DNA of 64,000 bases from Scenedesmus sp. PABB004 (taxonomy: Eukaryota): contig JABVCE010000002.1 in assembly GCA_014905635.1 (NCBI GenBank), positions 558,001-622,000 of the forward strand, in the 5' to 3' direction. Shown here piece by piece: positions 1,752 through 54,600 of the stretch; the first letter of the stretch is position 1; each line of letters opens with the position of its first letter. A program made the translations under genes and the position numbers. The notes beneath the pieces are model-generated. The model was not told the origin of the DNA and did no database searches. It saw only the letters and a program-made list of their open reading frames with translations.

Positions 1752-1804
1752 CTAGCGCCGCCGGTGGCGGCCGCCCTGCTCGCGCTCGCGCTCGCGCGCC
1801 TCCC

Positions 1805-1838
<34 letters not shown>

Positions 1839-4800
1839 CTCGCGCTCGCGCGCCTCCAGCTCCGAGTCCACGCTCTCGCCCGCGGTGCCGAGGCGCACGT
1901 CGCTGCCCGAGCGGTGCAGCCCGCGGAGGCCCAGGCCCGCGAGGCCGCCGGCGCTGGCGCTGCCGCCCGACGCGGCGCCGGCCAGGCCGGCGAAGCTGCC
2001 GGCGCCGTGCGCAAACGTGGAGCCGCCGGGCGCGGCCGCGGCACGCTGCACGTCCTGCGCGCCGCTGAGCCCGAGCTGCAGGAATCGGGCGAGGTCGGCG
2101 AGGGGGATGGTCGCGTCCTCGCCCTTGCGCTCCAGGCCCCGCACGCGCACCAGCCCCGGCGGCGCCAGCGAGCGCTCGTCGAGTATGGCCAGCCAGCGCG
2201 CGCCGCAGCCAGCCGCATACTCCCACGCCTCCGTCAGGCTCGGCGCCGCCCGCGGCACCAGCTGCGCGGCCAGGCCCGCGCCCCAGAGCTGCGCGACGAC
2301 CGCCATGCGGTGCTGCGGCGCGCGGCGGCGCGCGGCGCGGCGGGTGAGGCGCGCCCGCACGCAGCGCGCGGGCTGCAGCGCGCGCCGCGCCCCGCAGGCC
2401 CCCAGCCTGCCCCTCGTCGCCGCGCCGCGCACCTCCAGCATGCCGTCGCCGCCGCGCGCGCAGACCACCACGTCGCACGCGCCCGCCGGCAGCCGCCCCG
2501 GGCCCTCCAGCCCGGCGCCGCCGTGCCCGCCGCCGTGCGCGTGGCCGCCGGCGCCGGCGCGGTGCGCACGGCGGCGCTGGAGCAGCGTGATGAGCTTGGT
2601 GCAGTTGATGCTCACTCCGACGCCGCCGGGCGGCGGCAGCACCGCCGACGCCGCGGGCGACCAGAGCGAGCGGAGCAGTCCATCGTAGCGGCCGCCCGCG
2701 GCGACGGCGTTGGTGCACACCGTGCCGGCGGCGCTGGGCGGGCTCTGCAGCAGCACCTGCGGCACGTGGCGCGGCGCGGCGCGGGGCGGGGCGACGCTGG
2801 CGTCAGGGGCGCGGCTGCTGCAGGCGCAGCGGCGCCGCGCCGCCACGCCCGAGGTGCGCTGCGCCGCGCTGCGCGCGCGTGCCTGGAACACGGCGCCGCC
2901 AAAGTGCTCGCTCTGCGGCGGCAGCAGCGGCTCCAGCAGCAGCTGGTCGGGCGCCAGGCCCCACGCGACCAGCAGCCGCGCCAGCTCGCCGAGCTCCTCG
3001 GCCGCGCCGAGCGCCGCAGCCAGGCCCGCGCTGCCCAACTGGGGCTTGAGCTCGCGCAAGAAGGCGCGCAGCGCGCCCAGCTGCGACGCGACGGGCCCTG
3101 GCGAGGCGCCCAGGCGGCAGCGGCGGCGGCGGCGGCGTCGGCGGGAGCGCGGTTGGCGCCGCGCGCGCTCATACACACACGTTGCTGCGCCCACACGCGG
3201 GCCGGCCGCTCACCTGGCAGCTTCAGCACGCACTGCCGGCAGCGGCTGACGGGCTTCGAGTCCAGGCCCAGGCCGTCCAGGCCGGCGCGCACCGCAGGCC
3301 ACATCGCCGCACGGCCGCCGGCGGCCGCCGCGCCCGCAGCCCCCGCGCCGCCGGCCGCCGGCCCTGGCCCGCCGCCGGCGCCGCCGCCGCCGCTGGGCGC
3401 GGCGCCACCGCCCGGCGCGCTGCCGGCGCCGCCGCCGCCGCCGCCGCCGCCCGGCGCTCCAGGCGCGGCGCCGCCGGGCGCTGCACCGCCGCCGGGCGTC
3501 GCGCCGCGCGCGGCTGAGACGCTGAGCGCCGAGGCGAGCAGGGCCATCACGGACGACAGCGGCACGCCCGGCGGCAGGCCCAGCCCCGTGACGGCGGCGT
3601 TGAAGAGCGCCGTGTGGCCGAGGCGCACCTCGCATGCCCCCAGCTCCGGCAGCGCGTCCAGCACCTGGCGGGGCGCGGCGCGGCGCGCTCGGCGCGCGGC
3701 GCCTTGCGCGTGCGTGCGGGGCCGCCCCGCCCGCCGGGGCCGCCGCCGCCGCCGCCGCGCCGCGCCGCGCACCTGCGTGGCGGCCTTGACGACCTCCGCC
3801 TCGCCCAGCATGCGCTCGCGCACGACCGCTTGCGCGCCGCCGGCGCCGCCGTCGGGCGCGATGACGTCAAAGTCTGCCTGCAGGTAGCTCGCCGGCAGGC
3901 CCCGCCCCCGCCCCGCGCGCTGCACGCGGCAGACCTCAAAGCGCTTCAGCCCGCGCTCGAGCGCGCCCGCGGCGCCGCCGGGCGCGTGGAACGACCCGAG
4001 GAGGCTCGGCAGCGCGCCGGGGCCGGCCGCGAGCGCGGCCTGCTGCGCGTACCAGACAGCAAGCGGGTAGCGCAGCTCGTACCGCAGCGCCACCTGCGCG
4101 CCTGAGGGCGCCAGGTACCTGCGCAGCCACGACGCGCGGCGCCGCCACGTTGCGCCAGCGGGGCGCGTCAGCGGGGCACGAGCGGCGCGGCGCGGCGCGC
4201 GTCGGCCCCAGGCGCCCCGCGGCGCGCGCACCTGACGGCGTCGCGCGGCAGCGCGGCGTGGCCGAGGCCGAGGCTGCTGCTGCACATCTGCACCGCGCCG
4301 TGCGCCACGCACACGTCACGCACGGCGCGGACGACCGCGTCGTGCAGCTCGAGCGGCACGTCGAGCGGCGCGCCGGGCAGCTCGCCGAGCGAGAGCGCGC
4401 TCTGCTGGCTCGCGAGCAGCCCCGTGCCAAGCAGCCCCGCCTCGCCCGCCGCGCAGCCGCCGCCGCCGCTGCCGCCGCCCGGGGCGGCGCCGCCGGGCTC
4501 GCCCGCGCGCTCCTTGGCGGCGCCGATGGCAAAGAGCGCGTCGAGCACGCGCTCCGCTGCGAGGGGGTTGTCCGGCAGGCTGCGCAGCAGGTCGGTGAGC
4601 GCCTCGTCCTCGAGCCGCGGCGGCAGCAGGTCGCTCTGCAGCACCTCCCGCGCGGACGGGCGCGCCGCAGGCTTGGCCGCCATCAGCCACCTGCGTGGTC
4701 GGGGCGGGCACGCGGACCTGTGCGAGGGGCGCGCGCGGGGGCGCGCAGGGGCGCGCGGCGCCCGCCGCACCTGACGAGGCGCGCGACCTGCGGGTGCGCG

Positions 4801-7800
4801 GCCTCCCACGCGGGCGGCAGCTTGCCCGCCTCGCGCAGCTCGCGCAGCAGCACGGCGCGCTCCATCGCTGTCGAGAAGGGGTGCCACAGCTCAAACACCA
4901 CCACGCCCAGGCTGTACATGTCAACCTGACGCGGCGAGACGCGCGCGGACGCGCAGCGGCGCCACACCGGCGGCGGCGACGCGTCAGCGGCGCAGCGGCG
5001 CAGCGTGCCGCGCGCCGGCGCGGCTGCGCGCGGCGCGCGCCTTTTCGTCGTAGCTGGCCCAGCCCTGCGCGATCTCCGGCGCGATGTACCACCCCGTGCC
5101 GCACACGCCCGTCACGTCGGACGGCGCGCCCGCGCTCAGCGCGCGCGGGCCGAGGCTGCCCGGCGCGCGGCCGGCGGCGCCGCCGCCGGCCTTGGGGCTG
5201 TGCGGCGCGCCGGCGCCGCCGTCCCCGGGCGCCGCGTCGGCGTCGGCGCCGTCCCCAGGTGCCGCGGGAGGGGTGTTGAACTTGGCGAGGCCGAAGTCCC
5301 CGAGCTTGATGTCGCCGCGGGCGTCGTAGAAGATGTTGGCCTGAGGGGTGGGGGTGGGGGGGGAGGGCGGGCGGGAGGGGGGAGGGGTGTGAGGGAGGGG
5401 CAAGGGAGGGATGGGAGGGAGGGGTGAGGGAGGGAAGAGGAGGGAAGAGGGAGGGGACAGCAACGCGCGTGCGGGCGGCAGCGGCGCTGCACTGGCGCGC
5501 AGCCGGGGCGGGGCGGCGCGCGCCGCACGGGCTTGAGGTCTCGGTGGATGGCGCCCTGCCGAGGGTGTGTGTGTGGGGGGGGGGGGGGGGGGGGGGGGGC
5601 GGCGCGCGCGCGGGGTCGGCGGCGCGCGCGTGCGGCCGCGGCGGCCGCGGCGGCGGGGCCCGCCTGCCCGCAGCACGCGCGGTGCGCCGCGCCTGCGAGT
5701 GGATGTGCGCGAGGCCGGCCAGGATGCCTCGCAGGACCAGCCACGCGTCCGCCTCCTCCATCGCGCCCCCGTCCAGCACCTGTGCGCCGCCGCGGCGGCG
5801 GCGCCCGCCGCTGAGCGCGCGCGCGCACGCACGCCGCGCACGCGGTCTGGGCGGGCTCGGCGCGGCGCCGCGCGTGCCGCGCCTGTGCGAGCGTGCGGGG
5901 CAGAACTCCATTTGAATGTACAGGATCTGCCCCTCACCCCCCGCGCGGCGCCGCGACAGGCCCTTGGTCGGCGGCTGCGACGGCGGCGCGCCGCGCGGCG
6001 GCGGCGGCGCGCCGCGCGGCGGCGGCGGTGAGCCCAGCGGGCGCGGGGCGGCGCGCGGGGCGGCGCGCGGGCGGCGCGCGGCGCCCTGGCGCGCGTGCCT
6101 TGGGCGGCCTGGTGGCGTCGGGCTTGTGCTTGGCACCGCCGGGGCTGGGCGCGGCGCCGCCGCGGCGGCGCGCCGCTGGCAGGCGTGGCGGCATCGAGAA
6201 GCTGGGCTCGCCAAACACAGCGCTGCTGCTCTCGCTGTCGCTGGCGCTGTCGCTGGCGCTGCCGTCCCCGCTGCTGGTGGCATCGTCCTGCGCCGTCCAG
6301 TGCTGGCTGCTGCTGGTCGGCTGCTGCTCGTCGCCGCTGGTGCTGCCCTCCTCGTCGCTCGAGCTCAGGTCGCCCCACTCGCCGCCGTCGCTCTCGCCCG
6401 ACAGCTCGCCGCCGCTCGGCGCGAGCTCCGTCCAGGCCTGCGCGCGGCGCGCCGCGGCGCGCGCGTCGCGGGGCGCAGCGCCGGGGCGCAGCGCCTCGTC
6501 GCCGCGCGGCCCCGCGCGCGCGCGCGGGTGGAGCGCGCAGGCGCAGCGCCCCGCACGGCGCGGGGCGCGGGGCGCGGGGGCGCACCTGGAAGTAGCGCAC
6601 AATGTTTGGGTGGAACGACAGCCGCGACAGCGTGGCAACCTCTCGCAGGATGCGCGCGTAGCTGCTGCCGCCGAGCCGGATCTTCTTGACAGCGTACTTG
6701 CGCCCGTCCAGCCTGCGCGCGGCGCGCGGCGGCGGCGGCGGCGGTGGCGGCGGCGCTGGGCCGCGGGCGCGCGGCGCGGCGGGCTGCGCGGCAGGGCGGG
6801 GCTGCGCGCGAGCGGCGCGCCGGGCGCCGCGCCTGTTGGTGGCGGCCACGACGACGCCGAAGCCGCCGCGGCCGAGGCGCTGGAGCTCCTGAAAGTCGCT
6901 GGCGTAGCGCGACAGCGCCGTCGCGGCGGCGGCGGCGGGCGTGGCGCCTGCGCCGCCGCCGGCCCCCGCCGGGGACTGCGCCGGCGCCGCGCCGGCGCGC
7001 GCCGCAGCGGCGGCCTGCTCGCCCGGCGCCGCCGCGGGCGCGGCGGCCGACGCGCCGGCCTGGGCGCCGCGGGCCCAGAAGAGCTGCAGCAGCTCGTCGC
7101 CCGCGGGCTTGGGCAGCACCTCCGGCGTGCAGCAGCGCGCGATCTCCTGCGCCGCGCGCGGCGGCGCGGCGCGTGGCGGCTGGGCGGCGCCGCGCGCGCG
7201 GGGCGCGGCGCGCGGCAGCACGGGCGGCGCCGGCGCCGCTGCGGGGCTGCTGCCGCCGCACCTGCCGGAAGAGTCGCGCAAAGGCGCGCTCGTAGAGCTC
7301 CGGGCGCTGCGGCAGCTGCTGCAGCAGCCAGTGCACCCACCTCGGCAGCAGCCCCGCCCGGCGCAGGTGGCTGGCCAGCAGCTGCACGCTGGCCGGCGGC
7401 AGCGCCGCGCTCGCGCCCAGGCTGGACGCGCTGCGGCCGCCGCCGGCGCTGGTGGGGCCGTCGCCCGCCGCCGCCGCGACCGCCGCGGGGCCGCCGGCCG
7501 CCATGACCAGGAGGTGGCCGAGCAGCAGCTGGCCGCGCAGGCTCACGCCCTCCGCGTCGTCGCCGTCGCTGTCGGACGTGCCGCTGCTGCCGCCCAGGGC
7601 CGAGCTGCTGGCGTCCGAGCCGCCGCGGCTGGTGGTGTCCGACTCGTCCGACGACGAGGAGGTGCCGCTCACGCAGCTCTGGAACGCCTCGGCGTCGGCC
7701 GCCGCCGCGCCTCCGCGCCGACTGCTCGCGGCGGTGCTGCTCGTGGCGCTGCTGGCGGTGACGCTGCTGTCGTGCATGCGGCGGTACGCCTGGCTGTCAA

Positions 7801-8156
7801 AGTCCCCGAACACGAGCGACGCCAGCCGCGCCGGCGCGGCGCCCGCGCCCGCGCCCCCGGCCGCCGCGCCGGCCTCCGGCCTGCCGGCCTGCTGCTGCCG
7901 CTGCTCCGCCGCCTGCGCCTGCAGCGCGTGCGCCTCCGCCGCGCGGCGCTGGCGGTGGCGGTGCTTGCTTCGGCCGCTCCGGCCGCCCTTGCTGCTGCTG
8001 AGGCTGTTGAGCAGGTCCTGCAGGCCCCTGGGGAGGTTGCTGAAGCTGCAGCTGTGCCGGTGCGACAGCAGCAGCTGCAGCTTTTTGCTCTCGCTCAGGC
8101 CCGGCTGCCCCGGCGCGCCAGACGGCGCCGCCGGCACGACCGCAGTGGCCACCTGC

Positions 8157-8189
<33 letters not shown>

Positions 8190-9394
8190 GGCAGCTGCTG
8201 CTGCTGCTGCTCCACTGCCGCCTGCGGTGCCCGCCCCAGCGGCTGCGCCGCCTTCCCGCCAAGCGCCGCAGCTGCCGCCGCTGCCTTGAGCCCAGCGGCG
8301 CCGCGCGCTGGCGAGCCGGCCCCGCCCAGCGCTGCGCCCGGGCCAGCGCCCAGGCGCAGGCTGGCGGCGAGGTAGGACGGCGTGCGCGGCGACGCCGACG
8401 GCAGCATCTCTGGCGAGGGCGGCGCACCGGCGCGGCTGCGCGGCGGCGGCTCGGGGCTCGCGTCGCCGAGCGCCGCAGCCTTGGCGTTTCGCCGCACCTT
8501 GGGCCTGGCCGGGCCCTGCGGGTTGGCCAGGTTGGGCACGGCATAGGACGGCTCGCCCTCCTCGGCAAAGAGCCCGCCGTCAAACATCCACAGGTCCCCG
8601 CCGAGTGGGTTGGTGCCGCCCGGCCCCGGGCCGCCCAGCGAGAGCTCCGCGTCCCGCTCGGCGGCCTGCCGCTGCATGCGCGCCTGCATCTCGTGCCACA
8701 GGCTCAGCCGCTCGCCCGCGCCGGCGCCGCCCAGGCCGTCGCCGGCGGCCGCCGCCTCGAGCTCCCGCGCCTCAGCCTCGGCCGCCTCCTGTGCCGCTGC
8801 GTTGTGGTCGCGCAGGAACCTGCGACGAGCGCACGGTGCGGCGGCAGCCCAGATCAGCCCCGTGGCGCCCCCGGCTGCGCCGGCCCCCCGCCCCCGCTCT
8901 GGCCTCACTCCTGGCAGCAGTCCACCAGGTTGAACACGCACACCGCCTCATCCTTGGCGAACGCCGCCGCCGCCGCGTCGAGCTGCTGCGCGAGCGCCGC
9001 CGCGTCGTCGTCGCCCAGCCCCACCACCTCCCTGAGCTTGAGCTGCAGCGGTGTCGCCGGGTAGCCGGCGGTGTACCTGCGGCGAGCGGTCGCGGCGGCC
9101 TGGAGCAGGGCCACGCAACAGCGGCAGCAGCGGCCAACCGCTGGCATTGCCGCCGCGCCCTGCACCCGCCGAGGCGCCGCCCGCGCGCGCGCGCCTGATG
9201 CTGATCTGCGCGGCGGTGTGGTTGAGGGCCTCTGTGGCGGGGTGCGGGACGACCTTGAGGGTGAAGCCCAGGCCATCCTCGTCGAGCGCGAGGTCGTGCT
9301 CAAAGATCGCGCCCAGCGCCAGCAGCTCCTCAGCGATCTCCGCCTTGACCACCCGCGAGCTTCCCGCCTTGCCCTTGCGCTTCTTGGGCGCCAT
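1752..9394 (-). CDS. GCN2: eIF2-alpha kinase GCN2 (RWD, kinase, HisRS-like and anticodon-binding-like domains), multi-exon
   Basis: RWD start (EELLALGAIF..YTAGYPATP). Kinase motifs SRYASDFQELQRLGRGGFGVV, YAVKKI, LYIQMEFCP, IHRDLKP, IKLGDFGLAK, GTGWYIAPE and KVDMYSLG. HisRS-like motifs LRYELRYP, YLQADFD and AVAAGGRYDGL. There is a probable 1-bp error at 5897-5900. Confidence 0.93.
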
Positions 9395-10283
9395 GCCCGC
9401 GCCGCGCCCGCCCCGCAGCCGCCGGCGTGCGCCGCCGCTGGCGTGCGCCGCTGCCGGCGCCGCCCGCTGCGCAGACGGCAGCGGCGCGCCAGGTGCGTCT
9501 GTGCCGGCCACCTGCGCACACCCCTGGCATGCTGCGCCGCGCGCCGCGCGGCCGCGCTTCAGCCGACGCTGGGCCCCGGAACCAGGGGGTAGGTGACGTC
9601 GGGGCGCGGTGCGACGGGTCGCCACGCCGACGGCGCGCCGGCCCGCGGCCGGCCCGCGGCGTGCGCGACGGCGCGGCGGAGGCGCCTGGGGCGGCGGCGC
9701 GTCGCGCGCGCAGCGTCAATGCACCGCCGGGAGCTGCCCCCGCGCGCCCGGCGCCGCGGAGTAAGGTTTTACAGTCAGGAATATATAGGGCGAGGTCAGC
9801 GCCCGTGGGTGCGCGACGGCGCGCCCGTTCCTACGCGTCAGCGTGCTCGTGGTATGCGTTTCAGTGCATCGCACGCGGCGGACAGCCCGTGGCTCGCTGG
9901 AGCGCCGGGGCGAGGGCGCCGGGGTCTGCCCTCATCCCTAGCACAGGCTCCCCGCGTCCGGGCGTCTGGTTCGAGCGTCTGGCTCCAGTCCCGGCTGCCA
10001 CAGAACGCGGTGGGAGGCGGCGCGCGCGGCGCGGTGCGCTGAGGGCGACGCTGCGCGCGGGGCGTGCAGCCGAGAAGCTCGCTGCGCAGCGGAGTGTATA
10101 AACGAAACACCGCCCCCAGGGCCGCCCCGCCTGCCGGGAGAGATAGCTGGCAGCTTGTAGGGCATTTCGGGCCGACCGGAAGGGCGGTGCGCGCTGTGGT
10201 GATCACGGCTGACCATGCACCTTCCGCGGGCCTCGACCTCACATATTGAGCGCCACAGCCCCGCTGCCGCCCAGACAGACCTC
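9184..10283. repeat. Left arm of a 1.1-kb inverted duplication (partner 13643-14742)
   Basis: Position x pairs with 23926-x. The ORF track shows mirrored ORFs (9427..10101+ against 13825..14499-). Only about 3 substitutions were noticed. Confidence 0.97.
10044..10160 (+). promoter_or_regulatory. Inverted copy of the conserved subtilisin upstream block (TATAAA at 10097-10102), pointing at the 3' end of subtilisin A
   Basis: Reverse complement of 13766-13882 and homologous to 51279-51390. Confidence 0.6.
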
Positions 10284-11313
10284 AATTCTGAGACGCGTTG
10301 GGTCTGCGGGAGAATTACCAGAGAGAGCATCGCTCGATGTGCCCTCGAGCGGCTGCGCAGCCGCGTGAACAGCTCACAGGCGTGAGCGGCCAACGACGCC
10401 TCTGCCCCTCGCCCTAGCATGCATGCACTGCACACGAGAGAAGGATTTCCTTCTGCGTTTTTGTTCTCGCCCCGCTGTTTGCCGGGCGGGCGGGCACCTG
10501 CGGCGTATGCACGCAGTGGCACACCGTCGGCCGCGGAAAGGGAGCACTCACAGGGCAGTGTGCTGCCACACGGCAGCGTAGGTATCAGCACGCGCCGGCA
10601 GCCGGTCAGTGTGCAGGCGCGCTGCCGGGCTCAGGCCGCCCGCCTGGAACCCCGGCAGCGCCGAGAAAGGAAGGGCGACAAAGCAGCGCCAACTGCGGCG
10701 CAAGACATGCAGTGATGGTGGGTGGAGTGGGTTTAAGTGGAGCCTCGAGCGTGTGCACGTGCGCGCAGTGTTGTGATGACGCGGCGGGCAGGAACGTGGC
10801 GTGATGCAGCAGATGCAGCAGACACCGGAGCAAGGGGATGTGGCTGCAAATTAAGCACAAGCATGCACTCACAAGCAAGCAAGCAAGCACAGGGTGGGAC
10901 GGGGTGCGGGAAGGAAGGCCGAGGCCTCACAAGGCAGCACGCTGGGCCCCCTCAAGCAGTGCTTCAACCAGCCCCGCCACCCCACGGCGACGCGCGCGCT
11001 GGAAACCAAAGGATTCATCCCAGCTGCATCCACGGCAAGCTCTAGCCAGTGCTGTTCATGCACCGGTGCCAGGTGCAGGTACATCGCTGCGTCGCGCGTA
11101 GCAGCAGGCAGACCGTGAGCATTCGCCCAGGAGGCAAGCAGCCATGCTTTCCCAGCAGGCGCAAAGCTGACACAGCCAGCGCAGACCGACGGGTGTGCGC
11201 TAGATGCAAAAAGAGCGCGGCCGGGAGTGGGCGGTGTACTGGGAAGAACGGTGAGGGATGCAGAGAATGAATGGCGCAGCAACAGCAGCAGCCGCAGCAG
11301 GGCTGCGGTGTTT

Positions 11314-13535
11314 TCACCACTTTGCCCATGCCAGCAGGCCGTACACGCGGCTGCGCATCGGCTCCACGGTGGCGCCGGGGAAGCTGTACGACGCCGCGCC
11401 GGTGACGAGGCCCAGCCGCTCCTGCGCCGCGCTGCGCAGCGCCGCAATGACCGCGCCGCCGCCCTCGGCGCGCGACGGGCAGGTGCCAGACAGGATGCAC
11501 GCCGCGGCGACGCCGGCGACGTGCGGGCTGGCCATGCTCGTGCCGGACAGCTCCCTGTAGCCCGAGGGGTCGCGCGCAAAGGAGATGGTGCTGCGCACCG
11601 CGGTGCCGGGCGCGGCCAGCACGCGCGCCTGGTCGGCGGGGGCCGCGGTCGAGGGCAGCCAGTTGCTGAAGTAGGCAGGCGTGTTGGCGGCGGTGTCCAG
11701 GGCGGTCACAGCCACGGCGGCGGGGCAGGAGGCGGGCAGGTAGCCGGCCATGTCGGAGCCGTAGTTGCCCGCCGCGGCGACGATGACCAGGCCCGCGTCC
11801 GAGGCGGCCTGGAGCTGGCCGCACACGTAGTCAAACGTGGGCTGGTAGTCGGCGCTGGTGGGTGGGATGAAGGCAGTGAGCGAGAGGTTGATCACGCGAA
11901 TGCCCTTGGCCTGGCCCTCCGGCCCCGCCGCCCAGGCCACCGCCGAGAGCGCAGCCGACAGGCTGCCGGCGCCCTTGCCGTCAAGGACCTTGAGGGCGTA
12001 GACCGGCGTGCCGGGCGCCACGCCCACCACGCCCGCGCCGTTGTTGCGCGCGCCGATGATGCCCGCCACGTGCGTGCCGTGGCCAAAGATGTCGACGGTG
12101 GCGTCCGCGCTGTCGCCGGCCAGGTCAGCAGCGGGGGTCGCCCAGCTGGTGCCGCCGACCAGGTTGAGGTCGGGGTGCGTGCCGTCCACGCCGCTGTCAA
12201 TCACGCCGACCACGACCTGCTGCGCCGCAGGCAGGCCAGCGGCGTCGATGACGCCCTGCGCCGCGCTGCCGGCCTCGATGCGGCTCACGCCGGCGGGCAC
12301 CTCGTCGCCCGCCGCCAGCGGCGTGCGCGGCAGCACGGGGGTGGGCCGGCTCAGCGTCGGCAGGGTGGCGCTCGGAACGTCCGTGGTGGTGCTGCCCTCG
12401 CTGCTGCCGCCGGTGGGCGCGCAGATGAGCGTGGGCAGGCTCCGGGCGTAGAGCGGCGCGGCGCCGCAGGCGCCAAAGCGCTGGCGCGTCCACGTGGCCT
12501 TGGCGGTCGCCGGGGTCAGGACGCAGGGCTGGCCCGCGGCGTTGGTCGCGACGGCGCCCGTGACAGTGTTGACGGCGCGCAGCTGCGTGTAGGCGATCAT
12601 GCTGGCGGGCTCGCCGCAGGGCTGGCCCACCCACACCAGCGTGTTGGCGGGCGCGATGCAGCCCGGCCACTTGAAGGACGCCGGGGGCGTCGCGGCGAGC
12701 CCGGGGGCCAGCGCGGACGCCTCCACGCACGACTTGGGCCTGACCGTCGCCTGGTGCACGATGCGGCGGTCGGGGATGACCGACGCCACCAGCGAGGAGG
12801 CCTTGATGTGGGGCAGCGCTGCGGCGGACGCCGACACCACCACGGCCTGCACGCCGCGCCGCGGCGCCGCGGCCGCGGCGCTGCGGGCGCCTGCCGCCGG
12901 CGCAGCGGGCTCGCCGATGGAGCGCAGCACAGCAATGTCGGGCTCGCCCGCCGCCGGCGCGGCCGCCGCCGCGGCCGCGCCGCGCGCCGGCGCCGCCGCC
13001 GCGAGTGCCGACTGCACCTGCGCGACCAGCTGCTGCGGCGCCGCCTCGCCGGCCTGCGCGCCGAAGACCACGATGAAGCGGCCCTTCAGCGCAGAGTCGG
13101 TCAGGTCTGCGGGCGCGACGGCGGCAGCGGCGGCGTGAGGCTCTCGCCGCGTTGACCGAAGCGGTGAATCGCGCGGGCGCGGTGACTCCGCCCGGCCGCG
13201 GCCGCGCAGCTCACCAGGAATCGAGAAGTCATCAGCCGCCGGCTGGGGCGCCTGCGCCTGCACGGCCGCGCCGCGGAGCTGCAGCGGCCGGCGCCGGTGA
13301 TGGGCGGGGCCTGCGGGCGCGCGGCGCAAGAGTGAGCTGCTGCGGGCGCGCCCGCAGGTGGTCGAGGGGCGCTCGCCACGCATCCCCGGCCGCCCGGGCC
13401 GTGCGCTGGGGCGCCAGGTGCGCTGGGGCCCTGGCTCCTTGGTCGCGCCGCACCTGCGGCACCAAGAATGCGGCTACTGCTGGCATGGCGAACGGCCAGG
13501 GCCAGCAGGACGAGCGCCAGGGCAAAGGCCCGCAT
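11314..13535 (-). CDS. Secreted subtilisin-like serine protease (S8A), paralog A
   Basis: Signal peptide MRAFALALVLLALAV, a prodomain (GRFIVVF), the triad motifs VIDSG, HGTHVAG and SGTSMASPHVAG, and oxyanion motif AAAGN. Ends LLAWAKW. Confidence 0.93.
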
Positions 13536-13765
13536 GGGAGCCAACTCGCTGCAATGTTCACGAGGGGGTGTCGGCTCCCTGCGTGCGTAGGAGCTCTACA
13601 GGGGTGTTGTGGATGATGTTGTGTGTCGCGGAGTCTCGAATCGAGGTCTGTCTGGGCGGCAGCGGGGCTGTGGCGCTCAATATGTGAGGTCGAGGCCCGC
13701 GGAAGGTGCATGGTCCGCCGTGATCACCACAGCGCGCACCGCCCTTCCGGTCGGCCCGAAATGCC

Positions 13766-13882
13766 CTACAAGCTGCCAGCTATCTCTCCCGGCAGGCGGG
13801 GCGGCCCTGGGGGCGGTGTTTCGTTTATACACTCCGCTGCGCAGCGAGCTTCTCGGCTGCACGCCCCGCGCGCAGCGTCGCC
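13766..13882 (-). promoter_or_regulatory. Putative core promoter of subtilisin A (GTGTATAAACGAAAC)
   Basis: TATAAA at 13829-13824, about 289 nt upstream of the ATG. The same block lies about 284 nt upstream of the paralog B ATG. Confidence 0.65.
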
Positions 13883-14531
13883 CTCAGCGCACCGCGCCGC
13901 GCGCGCCGCCTCCCACCGCGTTCTGTGGCAGCCGGGACTGGAGCCAGACGCTCGAACCAGACGCCCGGACGCGGGGAGCCTGTGCTAGGGATGAGGGCAG
14001 ACCCCGGCGCCCTCGCCCCGGCGCTCCAGCGAGCCACGGGCTGTCCGCCGCGTGCGATGCACTGAAACGCATACCACGAGCACGCTGACGCGTAGGAACG
14101 GGCGCGCCGTCGCGCACCCACGGGCGCTGACCTCGCCCTATATATTCCTGACTGTAAAACCTTACTCCGCGGCGCCGGGCGCGCGGGGGCAGCTCCCGGC
14201 GGTGCATCGACGCTGCGCGCGCGACGCGCCGCCGCCCCAGGCGCCTCCGCCGCGCCGTCGCGCACGCCGCGGGCCGGCCGCGGGCCGGCGCGCCGTCGGC
14301 GTGGCGACCCGTCGCACCGCGCCCCGACGTCACCTACCCCCTGGTTCCGGGGCCCAGCGTCGGCTGAAGCGCGGCCGCGCGGCGCGCGGCGCAGCATGCC
14401 AGGGGTGTGCGCAGGTGGCCGGCACAGACGCACCTGGCGCGCCGCTGCCGTCTGCGCAGCGGGCGGCGCCGGCAGCGGCGCACGCCAGCGGCGGCGCACG
14501 CCGGCGGCTGCGGGGCGGGCGCGGCGCGGGC

Positions 14532-14731
14532 ATGGCGCCCAAGAAGCGCAAGGGCAAGGCGGGCAGCTCGCGGGTGGTCAAGGCGGAGATCGCTGAGGAG
14601 CTGCTGGCGCTGGGCGCGATCTTTGAGCACGACCTCGCGCTCGACGAGGATGGCCTGGGCTTCACCCTCAAGGTCGTCCCGCACCCCGCCACAGAGGCCC
14701 TCAACCACACCGCCGCGCAGATCAGCATCAG
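14532..14731 (+). pseudogene. Duplicated GCN2 exon 1 (partial RWD domain) with no downstream GCN2 exons
   Basis: MAPKKRKGKAG...AAQISIR matches the translation of 9394-9195. Homology stops at 14742. Confidence 0.85.
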
Positions 14732-15085
14732 GCGCGCGCGCGTCTGTGAACGCGCCGCGCCGTGCCGCGCCGCGCTGCGCACGCGCGCGCGCGTCCGGCC
14801 GAACAAGGAACGCAGCGCTCAAAGCTCAAAACCCCGCGAGCTGCGGCCTGGCGCAGGCGGGCAGACGCCACAGCGCGCACAGAGCAAGCAAGCAGAGAGA
14901 GAAGCGCCGCTGGGCGCAGCGCCGCATCCCGTTGGCGCCTTCTCCTGCACAGCAGCTGCACAAACCGCACCGCTCCCCTCCACTCCGCTCAGCTCAGCTA
15001 CCAGCCAGACCAGCGACCCAGCTCTAGCTCTCCACCACCATCGCTGCCGTCGGCGCCAGCGCCGTTATTCGCGCCCGGGCGCCAC

Positions 15086-16462
15086 TCAGAGCTTGGCGAG
15101 CTGCGCGGCGGCGGCGCCGCGCGCGGGGGCCTGCGGCGCGGCGCCGACCTCCTTCATGTAGCGCACAAAGCGGCCCATGATCTCCGGCAGCGTGTCGTAA
15201 CGCGCGTACTGCGCGCGCGCGCGGCGCCAGCGGCGGCGTGGTCACAACCGGCGCAGGGCGTGACGGCGCGGCCGCGGCGGCGCGGCGGCGGCGGCGCGGC
15301 GGCGGCGCGGCGGCGCGGCGGCGGCGCGGCGGCGTGGCGGTGGCGGCGGCGGCGCGCACCTGCACGCCGCGCTTGGCGCACTCGTCCTGCACGATCGCCG
15401 CGATGGCGGGGTAGTGCATGAAGGAGATGGCGGGGAACAGGTGGTGCTCGATCTGGGCGCGACACGCGGCGCGGCGCGCGGCGCAGGCGTCGTCGGACAC
15501 GGTGGCGCGCGCGTGCGGCGGCCGCGGCCCGCGTGCGGTGCAGCGCCGTCGCCGCCGCCGCGCGCCGTGCCGTGCCTGGAGGTTGAGGCCGCCGGTCATG
15601 AAGTTGCCGACCACGCCGCCCCAGTTGGCGCTCGTGAGCACCTGCTGCAGGCCCCAGTCGCGCTCGTCGATGTCCTGCTCCAGGCTCGCCTGCGCGGGCC
15701 CGTCGTCCAGCGGCTTGCTCTCCGGCACGTTGTGGCTGACCGCAAACGTGGTGGACAGCACGATGCTCTGCGCGACGTTGTACGCCGCCGCGCCGACGAG
15801 CGCGGCGACGGGGCCATGCAGCAGCGCGGGCAGGCCCAGGAGCAGGCCGTAGTGGGCCAGCTTGCCCGCCAGCACGGTGCGGCGCTCGCCCTCGGTCGCG
15901 CCGTACAGCGTCGCGCCGCCGGTCCGGTTGGACAGCAGGCCCTTGACGTCGCCGACCTGCGGGCGCGGCGGCGCCGCGCGCACGGGGGCGGGTCGCGCCG
16001 CGGCGCCGCGGCGCTGCGCGGCGGCTGCTGCGGCTGCTGCTGCTGCTGCTGCTGTTGCTGCTGCGGCGGCGGCGGCGCGCCTGGAACATGATCTGCAGCA
16101 GCGGGAAGGTGGCCCACATGTAGATGTGCTGGAACTGGTGGTACCTGGGCAGGTGTAGTGGCGGGGCGGGCCGGAGCGCGGGGGGCGCGCGGAGCGGGCA
16201 AGGCGGTGGGCGCCGCAGCGCCGGCGGGCAGCGGCGGCGGCGCGCGGCTCCGCGCGCCCCGCGCGGCCCGCGTGCGCGCGCACCACGCGCGGGGCAGGCG
16301 CGGGTCGAAGCGCAGGATGGGGAAGGCACTGAACACGTCCTCGTCAAACGCGTCGTCGTTGCAGTGGATGTGGTGAGACACCTGCGCCGCGGCGGCCGCG
16401 GCGCGTGCGCGCGGGGCTGGTCGGCGGCGGCGGCAGCGGCGGCAGCGGCGGCAGCGATGGCA

Positions 16463-48801: not shown

Positions 48802-51051
48802 TCACCACTTTGCCCAGGCCAGCAGCCCAAAGATTTTGCCGTACAGCGGCGCGCTCGCGTCGCCGGCAAAGCCATACGGCGCCGCGCCAGCGGACGGCGT
48901 GAGGCCCAGCCGCTCCTGCGCCGCGCCGCGCAGCGCCGCGACCACGGCCATGCCGCCCTCGGCGCGCGACGGGCAGGCGCCGGACATGATGCACGCCGCG
49001 GCGACGCCGGCGACGTGCGGGCTGGCCATGCTCGTGCCGGACAGCGCCCTGTAGCCCGAGGGGTCGCGCGCAAAGGAGGTGGTGCTCAAGACGTTGGTGC
49101 CGGGCGCGGCCAGCACGCGCGCCTGGTCGGCGGCGGGCGCCTTCGTGGGCAGCCAGTTGCTGAAGCCCGCGGGCGCGTTGGTGGCGATGTCCAGGGCGGT
49201 CACAGCCACGGCGGCGGGGCAGGAGGCGGGCAGGTAGCCGGCCATGTCGGAGCCGTAGTTGCCCGCCGCGGCGACGATGACCAGGCCCGCGTCCGAGGCG
49301 GCCTGGAGCTGGCCGCACACGTAGTCAAACGTGGCCTGGTAGTCGGGGCTGGTGGGTGAGATGAACGAGGTCAGCGAGAGGTTGACCACGCGAATGCCCT
49401 TGGCCTTGCCTTGCAGGCCCGCCGCCCAGGCCACCGCCGAGAGCGCAGCCGACAGGCTGCCGGCGCCCCTGCCGTTGAGGACCTTCAGGGCGTAGATCGG
49501 CGTGCCGGGCGCCACGCCCACCACGCCCGCGCCGTTGTTGCGCGCGCCGATGATGCCCGCCACGTGCGTGCCGTGGCCAAAGATGTCGACGGTGGCGTCC
49601 GCGCTGTCGCCGGCCAGGTCAGCAGCGGGGGTCGCCCAGCTGATGCCGCCGACCAGGTTGAGGTCGGGGTGCGTGCCGTCCACGCCGGTGTCAATCACGC
49701 CGACCACGACCTGCTGCGCCGCAGGCAGGCCAGCGGTGTTGGGGACGCCCTGTGCCGCGCTGCCGGCCTCGATGCGGCTCACACCGGCGGGCACCTCATC
49801 GCCCGCCGCCAGCGACACGTGCGGAAGAGGAACGACGGGCTGGCCCAGCGTCGGCAGAGTGGCGTTCGGGGCGGCTGCGATCGTGTCGTTGCTGCTGCCA
49901 CCGGTGAGCGCGCAGAGGAGCGTGGGCAGGCTCCGGCCGTAGAGCGGCGCGGCGCCGCAGGCGCCAAAGCGCTGGCGCGTCCACAGGGCCTTGGCGGCCG
50001 CGGGGGCCAGGACGCAGGGCTGGCCCGCGGCGTTGGTCGCGACGGCGCCCGTGACAGTGTTGACGGCGCGCAGCTGCGTGTAGGCGATCATGCTGGCGGC
50101 CTTGCCGCAGGGCTGGCCCACCCAAACGAGCTTGTTGGCGGGCGCGAGGCAGCCCGGCCACCTGAAGGACGCCGGGGGCGTCGCGGCGAGCCCGGGGGCC
50201 AGCGCGGACGCCTCCACACACGACTTGGGCCTGGCCGTCGCCTGGTGCACGATGAGGCGGTCAGGGATGACCGACGCCACCAGCGAGGAGGCCTTGATGT
50301 GGGGCAGCGCCGCGGCTGACGCGGACACCACCACGGCCTGCACGCCGCGCCGCGGCGCCGCGGCCGCGGCGCTGCGGGCGCCTGCCGCCGGCTCGGTGGG
50401 CTCGCCGATGGAGCGCAGCACAGCAATGTCGGGCTCGCCCGCCGCCGGCGCGGCCGCCGCCGCGGCCGCGCCGCGCGCCGGCGCCGCCGCAGCGAGTGCT
50501 GACTGCACCTGCGCGACCAGCTGCTGCGGCGCCGCCTCGCCAGCCTGCGCGCCGAAGACCACGATGAAGCGGCCCTCCAGCGCAGAGTCGGTCAGGTCTG
50601 CGGCGCGGCGGCGGCGGCGGCGTGAGCTGAGCGGCTTCGCGGTGCTTCGCGGCGACAAGGCGGCGGCCGGGTGAGCGACGAGCCGCAGCTCCTGTCAGCG
50701 GCCGCGCAGCTCGCCTGGGCGCCAGACCTCGTCAGCCTCCGCCAGCGGCTCGTGCGGCTGCACGGCCGCGCCGCGGAGCTGCAGCGGGCGGCGCGCGGGC
50801 GCGCCTGCGATTGCGCGCGCCGCGGAGCGGGGGAGCGTCAGCGAGGCCGGCGCCGGCTCGTGTGACAGATGCGCGAGTAATCCTGCCCTCTGGGCCGCAC
50901 GACGCCGCGCGGCGCGCGCGGGAGGGGCGAGATGAGCCCGCGCGCGCAGCGGCCCACCTGCTGCTGCCGCGCCGCTGAGCAGCGGGCGGGCCTGCGACTG
51001 CGACAAGCTCAGCGCTGCCAGCGCTAGCGTCAGCGCCAGCACACGCGCCAT
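48802..51051 (-). CDS. Secreted subtilisin-like serine protease (S8A), paralog B
   Basis: Signal peptide MARVLALTLALAAL and triad motifs VIDTG, HGTHVAG and SGTSMASPHVAG. The main exon is highly similar to 11314-13106. Confidence 0.93.
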
Positions 51052-51278
51052 GGATTGGGGGGTGGCACCAGGCGGCCTGCTGTTGGCTCCTATGTGCTCA
51101 CGCCTGTGGGTTGTCGAGGGGTGCCTAGTCGATCGAAGAGGTCGCAGAGAGGTCGCATCTGTCGGCGCCGGGGCAGCGGTGGCGCGTCTGGCAGCTGCGA
51201 CGTGCCGGAAATGTGACGGCCCGCAGGTGCAGGCCCTCACCACAGCGTGCACCAGCCCTGCCGTCGCTCCTGCATGCT

Positions 51279-51390
51279 CTACAAGCTGCCAGCTATCTTC
51301 CCCGCAGGCGGGGCGGCCCTGGGGCGGTGTTTCGTTTATACACTCCGCTGCGCAGCGAGCTTCGCTGCACGCCCCGCGCGCAGCGTCGCC
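51279..51390 (-). promoter_or_regulatory. Putative core promoter of subtilisin B
   Basis: Non-coding block shared with 13766-13882, with TATAAA at 51340-51335. Confidence 0.65.
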
Positions 51391-51656
51391 GACAGCGCCG
51401 CCCAGTCCTCGCCCGCGCGGCCACCGGCGTCAGCACGGCCAGGCTTAGGAGCATCGCGGCAGTGGGGCGCGGTGCTTGGTCCGGTAGCTGGGCGGCACTT
51501 GCGCACTGACGTCGACGCTGCACGCGCTCCTGCGCGCTTACCGTCGCGCGCAGGCCGTCGCAACGGCTCCACCACCAAAAGTCATGCAGTTGGGTTCTCT
51601 CACTGGCCACCACAACACCGTCGACCCGACCGCCTGCGCTGCGCGCGCCGCGCCGC

Positions 51657-54600
51657 TCACGCCGCCACGGCGGCCGCGGGTGTCGCAGCGGCAGCAGGCT
51701 CGGCCGCGAGCGACGAAACGGCCGCCGTTGAAGGGGTGGGTGCGGCCGGGGGCGTGGTGACCGCGCCCGCCCCAGCCTGAACGATGGGCGCGGCCGCTGC
51801 CGGCGCGTTGACAGGCTCGACGGCTGCCGCCTGCGCCGACGCCGTGGCGCCGGTGACCGCCACGGCGGGCCCAGCAGCCGCCGCCGGCACCGCGGCGGGC
51901 TCGGCGGCTGGCGCCTGCGCCGGCGCAGGCGCCAGCGCCGCGACCGCCGCGGCGGCGGGCTCGGTGGCTGCCGCCGGCGCCGGCGCAGGCGCCAGCGCCG
52001 CGACCGCCACGGCCGCGGGCTCGGCGGCTGCCGCCGGCGCCGGCGCAGGCGCCAGCCCCGCGACCGCCACGGCCGCGGGCTCGGCGGCTGCCGCCGGCGC
52101 GGCGGCGGCGACCACCGGGGGGTCGTCGCGGCCGCAACCGCGACCGCGCCGCCGCTGGGCGCCGCGGTCTTCTTGGGCGGCGGGGGGATGGCGGTCATGT
52201 CCATGTTCTTGAACCCAGGCCAGTCAATGGGCTTGTAGGTCACACCGTTCCAGCGCCACTTCTTGGCGGACGCCACAGTCGCGTTGGCGGCGGGCTTGGC
52301 GGCGGCGGGGGCGGCCGCGCCGAGCGCCTTGGCGGGCGCGGCGGCGCTGCTGCTCGACGTGGGCGCGGCCGCCGGCGTGCTGTCGGTGGCAGCAGGCGCG
52401 GGCTCCGCGCGAGGCACGGCGGGGGCGGGGACGCTGCCAGCGGCCGCGGGCTGCTTGGCCGCCGCGCCGGTGCTGGCGTCCGCCGCCGGCGTGGGGGTGA
52501 CCTTGGCCTGCGTGGAGGGCTGCTGAGGCTCCTCCTGAGCGGGCGCTGGTGCCAGCTGCCTGGCACCGGCAGCGGCAGGGGCGTCCGCGACCGGCTGCTG
52601 AGGCGCTGCCGGCTTGGGTGCCGCCGCCGGCTGCTCAGGCTCGCTGGCAGGCTGCTCGCGCTTGGGCGCCACCGCCGGCTGCGCAGGCTCGCCGGCAGGC
52701 TGCTCGCGCTTGGGCGCCGCTGCCGTCGGCTGCGCAGGCTTGCTGGCAGGCTGCTCGCGCTTGGGCGCTGCCGCCGCCGGCTGCTCAGGCTCGCTGGCAG
52801 GCTGCTCGCGCTTGGGCGCTGCCGCCGGCTGCGCAGGCTCGCCGGCAGGCTGCTCGCGCTTGGGCGCTGCCGCCGCCGGCTGCTCAGGCTCGCTGGCAGG
52901 CTGCTCGCGCTTGGGCGCTGCCGCCGGCTGCGCAGGCTCGCTGGCAGGCTGCTCGCGCTTGGGCGCCACCGCCGGCTGCGCAGGCTCGCCGGCAGGCTGC
53001 TCGCGCTTGGGCGCCGCTGCCGTCGGCTGCGCAGGCTCGCCGGCAGGCTGCTCGCGCTTGGGCGCTGCCGCCGCCGGCTGCTCAGGCTCGCTGGCAGGCT
53101 GCTCGCGCTTGGGCGCTGCCGCCGGCTGCGCAGGCTCGCTGGCAGGCTGCTCGCGCTTGGGTGCCGCCACCGCCGGCTGCGCAGGCTCGCCGGCAGGCTG
53201 CTCGCGCTTGGGCGCTGCCGCCGTCGGCTGCGCAGGCTCGCCGGCAGGCTGCTCGCGCTTGGGCGCTGCCGCCGCCGGCTGCTCAGGCTCGCTGGCAGGC
53301 TGCTCGCGCTTGGGCGCTGCCGCCGGCTGCGCAAGCTCGCCGGCAGGCTGCTCGCGCTTGGGCGCTGCCGCCGTCGGCTGCGCAGGCTCGCCGGCAGGCT
53401 GCTCGCGCTTGGGCGCTGCCACCGCCGGCTGCGCAGGCTCGCTGGCGGGCTCCTGGCCCTTGGCCTCCGCTGGCTCACTGGGATCCTGAGCGTCCGCGCC
53501 GCCCGCAGCCTGCGTGCCCGTCGCCGGCGCCTCGGGTGCTGCGCCGTCGGCCGGCTGCTCGGGGGCGGGCGCGGTGGCGGCGCTGAGGCCGCTGCCGGCC
53601 TGGGCCAGCTGCTCCTCCAGCTCCGTGATGCGCGCGCGCATGCTGGCCATGACCGCCTCGCACGGCTCGCACGCCTCTGTGCCCGGCTCGGGCGCGTACA
53701 TGTGCTCCGGGCAGGCCTCACACTCGGCCGCGCCCTCGGCGCCCGAAAAGGTCCCGGGGTCGCAGGGCTGGCACTCGGTGGAGTTGGCGGGGGCGTGCAT
53801 GCCCTTGGGGCAGGGCTCGCAGCTGCCGGCGCCGGCGCCGCTGTGGCTGCCCGGCGGGCAGACCTCGCAGCGCTCCCAGCCGGGCTGCGCCCAGCTGCCC
53901 GGGGCGCAGGGATCGCAGGTGGCAGAGCCGGAATCAGACACGTAGCCGGGCTCGCACGGCGTGCAGTCGGTGGAGTTTGAGTCAGGCGCGTGCATGCCGG
54001 CCGGGCACTCCTTGCACTCCTTGGCGCCCTCGTCGCCGCTGAACATGCCGCGCGGGCAGACCGAGCACTTGCCTGTGCCCTCCTTGTCGGCGTAGCTCCC
54101 GGGCGGGCACGGCGTGCAGGTCGAGGCGCCCTCGCCTGCGACGGCCGCGGCGGCGGCGGCGGGGCGGGGGTGAGCCAGCTGCCGTCTGTGGGCGGCCGCG
54201 CTGGCCGGTGCCGGGCTGGGCGTGTGGCATGAGAGCCCAGCCCGTGCGCACCTGCGTAGCTGCCCGGCGGGCACGGCTTGCACTCCCTGGTCTCGTTGCC
54301 GGGGCTGGTGCTACCGGGCCGGCACGGCCTGCAGGCGCCGTCCACCACGAAGGAGCCGGGCGGGCAGTTGCTGCCGACTGCGGGCGGAGCGGTGGCACAC
54401 CGGTCAGCGGCGGGAGGGAGGGCGGGGGCGGGGGCGGCGGCGGCGGGACCGAGCGCGCCCCGGCGCGCGCTCGGCGCCGCCGGCTCACCGCGGGGCGTGG
54501 ACCGAGGGGGGCTGAAGTGCCCGCTGTCGGGCGGGGTGGTGTCGTCGGAGGGGTTCTTGGGCGGGCTGCCGCCGGTTGCGTTCTTGGGCGGCGGGCCGCC

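Follow-up and report, generated by a model that had tools for sequence, protein, structure and literature searches.

A subtilisin gene between inverted copies of a GCN2/subtilisin promoter segment in Scenedesmus sp. PABB004: a probably old inversion with arms likely kept alike by gene conversion

The palindromes of the mammalian X and Y chromosomes and the FLNA-EMD inversion keep an arm identity of >99% around a unique spacer by arm-to-arm conversion. Here, we propose the same process for a small locus of Scenedesmus sp. PABB004, from which the mammalian palindromes differ in having far larger arms, whole gene copies, and a location on sex chromosomes. The locus lies in a window of 64,000 nucleotides (nt), by which we mean the whole stretch analyzed (GenBank assembly GCA_014905635.1, contig JABVCE010000002.1, positions 558,001 to 622,000 of the forward strand; the positions below are counted from its first letter). 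A subtilisin gene (subtilisin A) is enclosed there by two inverted arms, and each arm holds the first exon of a GCN2 gene and a putative subtilisin promoter. We consider it probable that this structure is an old inversion with one staggered breakpoint, that its arms have been kept alike by arm-to-arm gene conversion, and that a crossover between them would flip the gene with little effect.

The 24-kb flip/flop (FF) region of Saccharomyces, with inverted repeats (IRs) of 4.2 kb, likewise has unique nuclear genes between its repeats (Salzberg et al., 2022, PMC9731477). According to that account, the repeats of one strain resemble each other more than they resemble those of other strains and are homogenized by gene conversion in non-allelic recombination; ~4% of the events reportedly end in a crossover that inverts the spacer, and the inversion is described as a by-product without a clear phenotype. 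Over ~53,800 mitoses of yeast, that study observed no change. The FF region differs in that each IR contains whole genes, both orientations are documented, and the structure is found throughout the genus (PMC9731477). In contrast, the arms in Scenedesmus are only 1.1 kb long and contain a split head-to-head promoter and one orphan exon, and the spacer contains one gene and is known in one orientation. It is particular to this locus that each arm consists of one working half and one passenger half.

In Drosophila, staggered breaks have produced inversions with inverted duplicates of non-repetitive sequence, parts of genes among it, at their breakpoints; only one breakpoint region was duplicated in 12 inversions, and the duplications were under ~1.9 kb (Ranz et al., 2007, PMC1885836). 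The layout of the present locus, A D B′ D′ C (GCN2 body, left arm, inverted subtilisin segment, right arm, and the 3′ end of a fatty-acid desaturase gene), is that of the staggered-break model in that article. The Drosophila duplicates, as presented there, have an average identity of ~88%, and several are mutated and presumed nonfunctional, whereas the present arms lie close together, with a 3.3-kb spacer between them, and have remained 99.7% identical. The term gene conversion is absent from PMC1885836. The maintained inverted repeats described for Caenorhabditis (Zhao et al., 2007, PMC1803023) are more conserved in structure than in sequence across lineages, as here, but they comprise homologous gene pairs and intergenic DNA, while the present arms lie on either side of a single, unrelated gene. 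A literature search, with most subscription papers and supplements outside its range, yielded neither an account of this locus nor one of such a cassette from a green alga. The locus is a small inverted duplication in the nuclear DNA of an alga, and conversion likely holds it together.

Inverted arms and their junctions in a diverged relative

The left arm (D, 9184–10283) and the right arm (D′, 13643–14742) had a length of 1100 nt each and were mutual reverse complements with three substitutions, paired at 9362/14564, 9718/14208, and 10210/13716. The original prediction, which had been made from the letters alone, had described these inverted arms with about three substitutions near 9361, 9718, and 10210; this was confirmed, with the first site actually at 9362. 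The gapped blastn match was slightly longer (9184–10294 and 13633–14742; 1106 of 1111 positions), as it added 11 nt at the inner end together with one mismatch and one gap. Depending on the boundary chosen, the spacer was 3,338–3,359 nt, so that the predicted 3.36-kb spacer holding subtilisin A was also found, and the whole arm-spacer-arm unit measured 5.6 kb. The arms were the longest inverted pair listed in the window (GC content 78%), and the runner-up had 118 nt at 70%. At least two full arm copies were present in the genome (40 Mb in 80 contigs), plus a 168-nt block at 51237–51398. The non-coding part (10294–11316) of the inverted segment B′ (10295–13632) was single-copy in the genome. 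Positions 9000–15300 had no match in Rfam.

Five runs contained part of the stretch, and four of them, metagenomes X1–X4, were aligned to positions 10284–15260 at 85% likeness. Neither long reads nor RNA were among the runs listed, and for RNA this has no bearing on expression. X1 and X2, which were two samples of one study, contained a close relative that was 2.4% diverged in both arm and spacer; the pieces from X3 and X4 were all short or unrelated and contained no junction. The joint between the arm and the far end of the spacer, from 13665 (−) to 10294 (+), was found in X1 with 175 letters on its short side and in X2 with 30 letters. A contig in X2 spanned 13324–13694, from the arm into the 5′ end of the subtilisin gene, and a contig in X1 spanned 14483–14773, from exon 1 into flank C, with 31 letters beyond the arm at a depth of 3. 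Thus, three of the four junctions were found in X1 and X2: both inner ones and, as a borderline case, the outer right one. A joint between the spacer end and flank C was absent among the 10 joints listed, which leave aside 277 loose ends. No record reached across an arm into both of its flanks. The arm contig in X2 started at 13665, where it was overlapped by both inner contigs, and its depth of 9.53 was close to the sum of theirs (5.2 + 3.9), as expected for a collapsed two-copy repeat. The occurrence of the junctions in an independent relative disfavored a mis-assembly, which the original prediction had named as an outcome that would overturn it.

Substitutions between the relative and the window numbered 17/688 (X2) and 21/875 (X1) for the arm and 26/1065 and 29/1167 for the non-coding spacer, or ~2.4% throughout. 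For arms that predate the split of the lineages and evolve separately, no fewer differences would be expected than between the lineages, or ~27 sites. Only three differences were seen in 1100 positions (Poisson P = 6e-9, or 7e-4 with the expectation halved; Fisher P = 2e-5), and the arms have therefore likely been homogenized by gene conversion. At 12 of the 13 substitutions in the X2 arm contig, both arms of the window shared a base that differed from X2; at the remaining site, 13716, X2, X1, and X4 matched the left arm of the window. The window arms, the pair for which this is established, were closer to each other than orthologous arms were between lineages. The homogenization argument is built only on this arm pair and the shared junctions. 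At the inner left junction (10262–10294), the window had 32 letters copied from the right side, and the relative had 16 other letters between the same anchors; such a difference in the boundary would fit a conversion tract that moved it.

Two putative promoters in each arm and their proposed ancestral arrangement

From left to right, the locus comprised the GCN2 body (−), arm D, the spacer with subtilisin A (−), arm D′, and the desaturase 3′ end. Exon 1 of GCN2 (9195–9394, minus strand, 200 nt) had a predicted GC donor and was in frame with exon 2, which started at 9076. The part of the GCN2 body examined (4987–9076, minus strand) contained the RWD domain in exon 2 and the exons of the kinase N-lobe. 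The gene was identified as GCN2 from an RWD match (E 1e-4, just under the Pfam cut-off), a Pkinase match, and best PDB matches to the eIF2-alpha kinases PERK and GCN2. The orphan copy of exon 1 in the right arm (14532–14731, plus strand) was intact, with one synonymous change and the donor kept. Both copies encoded the same 65 residues, and the orphan copy, if unspliced, would be read for 166 codons towards the 3′ end of the desaturase. Intron 1 seemingly starts with GC instead of GT; the site falls in a CG run at the end of both arms (9194–9185 and 14732–14742). A TATATA motif at 9782–9787 (minus strand; mirror copy at 14139–14144 on the plus strand) is a candidate TATA box of GCN2. The 3′ exons of the desaturase in flank C were located at 15086–16343 on the minus strand, with the stop codon at 15088–15086.

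Subtilisin A (11314–13535, minus strand; ATG at 13535, stop codon at 11316–11314) began with a signal-peptide-like sequence (MRAFALALVLL) and likely had short 5′ introns. It matched the Peptidase_S8 domain (E 8e-40) and contained the catalytic motifs VIDSG, GHGTH, and GTSMA. Its promoter block was located at 13724–13890 (minus strand), with TATAAA at 13829–13824, 289 nt above the ATG. The mirror copy in the left arm (10036–10202, plus strand; TATAAA at 10097–10102) faced the 3′ flank of subtilisin A. Subtilisin B, a paralog 37 kb away (48802–51051, minus strand), had 89% DNA identity over 2043 nt, and the 168-nt arm block was the only upstream DNA that could be aligned between the two genes. 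The block of subtilisin B (51237–51398, minus strand) was 89% identical to the arm block and had a TATAAA 284 nt above the ATG. TATAAA was rare, with 11 occurrences in 984 kb of the genome, three of them in the three copies of the block. The alignment upstream of subtilisin B, the similar spacing of TATAAA and ATG, and the rarity of the motif indicated that the block is very likely the core promoter of subtilisin. The mapping of exon and block confirmed that each arm carries GCN2 exon 1 facing outward and the subtilisin promoter block facing inward, as had been predicted. TGTAA, a poly(A) signal, was present neither in the 3′ flank of the subtilisin nor in flank C; since only 89 TGTAA existed in the 984 kb, this is no sign of read-through into the arm.

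The GCN2 start and the subtilisin promoter occupy opposite ends of one segment, and a head-to-head pair is therefore the simplest ancestor. That both belonged to one ancestral segment is supported by the promoter block, which travels with subtilisin B, and by exon 1, which splices in frame to the GCN2 body. The prediction of a head-to-head GCN2/subtilisin pair inverted with breakpoint duplication was thus supported, with the qualification that one breakpoint would have been duplicated. The ancestral order would have been A D B C, that is GCN2, the shared segment D, subtilisin, and the desaturase 3′ end. Breaks staggered across D and blunt at the boundary of B and C would then have produced A D B′ D′ C. 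Template switching would yield the same product as staggered breaks, and the two are indistinguishable here. The resulting structure was shown in one lineage, the relative with 2.4% divergence, and the counts suggest that later changes have been copied between the arms by conversion. The left arm would now serve GCN2 and the right arm subtilisin, while the other halves would be passengers that conversion saves from decay. Rare crossovers may, as a candidate last step, re-invert the spacer over evolutionary time. A 7-nt match between the spacer end and flank C (CGCGTCT) was considered as a scar of template switching and rejected: matches of 7 nt arose with random 20-mers in 1% and 8% of trials, and three letters of the match fell in the part of the junction that is missing from the relative.

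Alternative explanations and the expected effect of a flip

A recent inversion, with arms alike because they were duplicated recently, had been proposed in the original prediction. The arm identity and the intact orphan exon would agree with it, and most other inverted pairs in the genome have identities of 89–97%, as in a decay series. However, the same junctions were present in a lineage 2.4% diverged, ~9 times the difference between the arms, and the differences of the relative began ~20 nt from the inner junction (10312, 10417–10462), where the least exchange with un-inverted chromosomes would be expected. The word recent is thus not supported, and we consider this explanation quite unlikely; near-identical arms do not date an inversion. 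An assembly artefact, in which one arm was assembled twice or diverged arms were overwritten to near identity by polishing, appears still less likely. High-GC DNA is hard to assemble, but independent contigs contained both inner junctions and the outer right one, the arms differed at three sites, and their flanks were distinct. At 2.4% divergence, moreover, most short reads would be expected to carry a diagnostic site.

An unlikely explanation, though the least unlikely of the four considered here, is a selected regulatory cassette in which active passenger promoters would yield RNA antisense to subtilisin A (starting from 10097) and to the desaturase (from 14139), or a transcript that pairs with its own opposite end. 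Each copy is complete, since the arms include both TATA-like boxes, and the structure was kept through 2.4% divergence. In addition, the core (13665–13853) had 0/189 changes, against 12/247 beside it (P = 0.002, with the split chosen post hoc). Conversion alone, however, would explain the intact passengers, the working copy would predict a conserved core, and such duplications were common in this genome. A transposon with long terminal inverted repeats, or an invertible switch driven by a recombinase, is extremely unlikely. A cargo gene between long inverted arms recalls such elements, but the arms consisted of host promoter and exon sequence in two genome copies, the flanking sequences were unrelated to each other in blastn, and the spacer held only a subtilisin. 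No match to transposase families was found in the open reading frames (ORFs) scanned, and no target-site duplication at the arm flanks; the original prediction was borne out on both points. Dispersed copies and a partner element, which a terminal-inverted-repeat or foldback transposon would have, were not seen either. The inverted duplication at both ends of the segment was thus made of non-repetitive host sequence, and the breakpoints were without a transposon, judging from the arm copies, the flanks, the ORF scan, and the copy number of the spacer. The TATA block lies within both 1.1-kb arms and the same promoter precedes the gene in either orientation, which argues against a phase-variation switch.

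Several points weigh against an old inversion homogenized by conversion. X1 and X2 came from one study and represent one independent lineage at depths of 2–10, and joints at a likeness under 95, such as the 85 used, can stem from repeats or from another organism. For the outer right junction there was a single contig of depth 3 at the 31-letter minimum, and the outer left junction was outside the aligned stretch. The depths in X1 were equivocal (arm 9.9–10.0; spacer 5.3 and 7.1; a contig with gaps of the subtilisin B type 8.3), and the exon 1 part of the arm had depths of 3.0 (X1) and 3.8 (X2), like single-copy coding pieces (2.0–3.8). Contigs drop variants, so the comparison speaks for the window pair and not for the two arms of the relative itself, and the Poisson test presumes an even clock. 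The assembly was judged without the window's own reads, and polishing was argued against by inference. An un-inverted outgroup was not found, as a metagenome scan with subtilisin A gave 27 loci of 26–40% identity, none evidently algal.

Under an old inversion with converted arms, a flip would be nearly silent, as the anatomy suggests: subtilisin A would stand behind an identical promoter and GCN2 would be unaffected. The cassette is therefore not a switch. The chances that the spacer has flipped on an evolutionary scale seem roughly even. The passenger halves could last without a function as long as conversion renews them; their promoters could make antisense RNA, but a selected regulatory role for the arms is improbable. 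Equally improbable is a stronger version, in which conversion chains the two copies of the duplicated bidirectional promoter and so forces the promoters of the GCN2 stress kinase and of the secreted protease to co-evolve, the protease gene undergoes re-inversion between them in natural populations, and the passengers fire conserved antisense RNA into subtilisin A and the desaturase. If this were true, the many inversion scars here would make the process a common source of new regulation among GC-rich green algae. The biology of the protease or of GCN2 is probably little changed by the finding. The unit is a compact 5.6-kb model that fits one long read or one polymerase chain reaction product. 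It suits a question that the yeast work left open, namely whether selection is needed for homogenized repeats to last or whether they are retained passively. Half of each arm is without an evident job, and eight other pairs with 89–99% identity in the same genome provide a comparison series.

Other inverted duplications and subtilisins in the genome

A sample of 984 kb was searched with megablast for inverted pairs of at least 400 nt and at least 85% identity within 30 kb. It was not a random sample, comprising 464 kb of contig C13 including the window, 200 kb each of contigs C1 and C24, and 120 kb around subtilisin paralogs. At least nine loci with local inverted pairs were found, the present one included, with blast identities of 89–99.6%, and two of them reached 99% or more. 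In a genome-wide search, all three tested of the other eight loci were confined to their own locus. This genome makes such duplications often, so the present locus is the top of a distribution and not a lone oddity. In the 120 kb around six other subtilisin loci, there was neither a match to the promoter block better than E 0.015 nor a near-identical inverted arm pair.

The other near-perfect palindrome in the sample was a 2.6-kb inverted gene duplicate with 99.1% identity and a 628-nt spacer (C24:637628-643474), and a further inverted copy of its spacer DNA (476 nt, 94%) was found at C24:645537-646004. Two nested inverted pairs (433 nt at 93% and 639 nt at 89%) were located at C1:2028072-2038572, and the inner pair was upstream of two convergent genes, as if they shared a duplicated promoter. 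Locus-confined inverted duplications with 92–97% identity were found at C13:443135-446392, at C13:492765-501559, and between C13:539290-540036 and window positions 1782–2533; the right arm of the last pair lay within the first 2.6 kb of the window. The sample also contained an 8.5-kb tandem array with a 172-nt period and ~99% identity (C1:2003777-2012272). A dispersed repeat of ~8 kb with 89–99% identity (C1:2175923-2184199, C24:674244-682777, C76:1053780-1056000, and C13:800413-802000) is probably a transposon family.

An expanded S8 protease family was found on contigs C13, C16, C36, C24, C76, C4, and C77, and several members had an uninterrupted catalytic domain. Among the best 8000 candidates scored, the closest named homologues of subtilisin A were from green algae, such as Tetradesmus obliquus (40–60% identity) and Raphidocelis subcapitata; S8 proteases of bacteria came next (30–46% identity). 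The locus was accordingly taken to be nuclear DNA of a chlorophyte. An old transfer of these proteases from bacteria would be possible on this pattern. Between subtilisins A and B (11320–13110 and 48811–50580), there were 79 non-synonymous, 33 synonymous, and 476 identical codons, a count that is not a formal dN/dS; the high non-synonymous ratio hints at relaxed or diversifying selection. A tandem coding repeat with a 48/51-nt period was observed at 52612–53475, in the gene upstream of subtilisin B.

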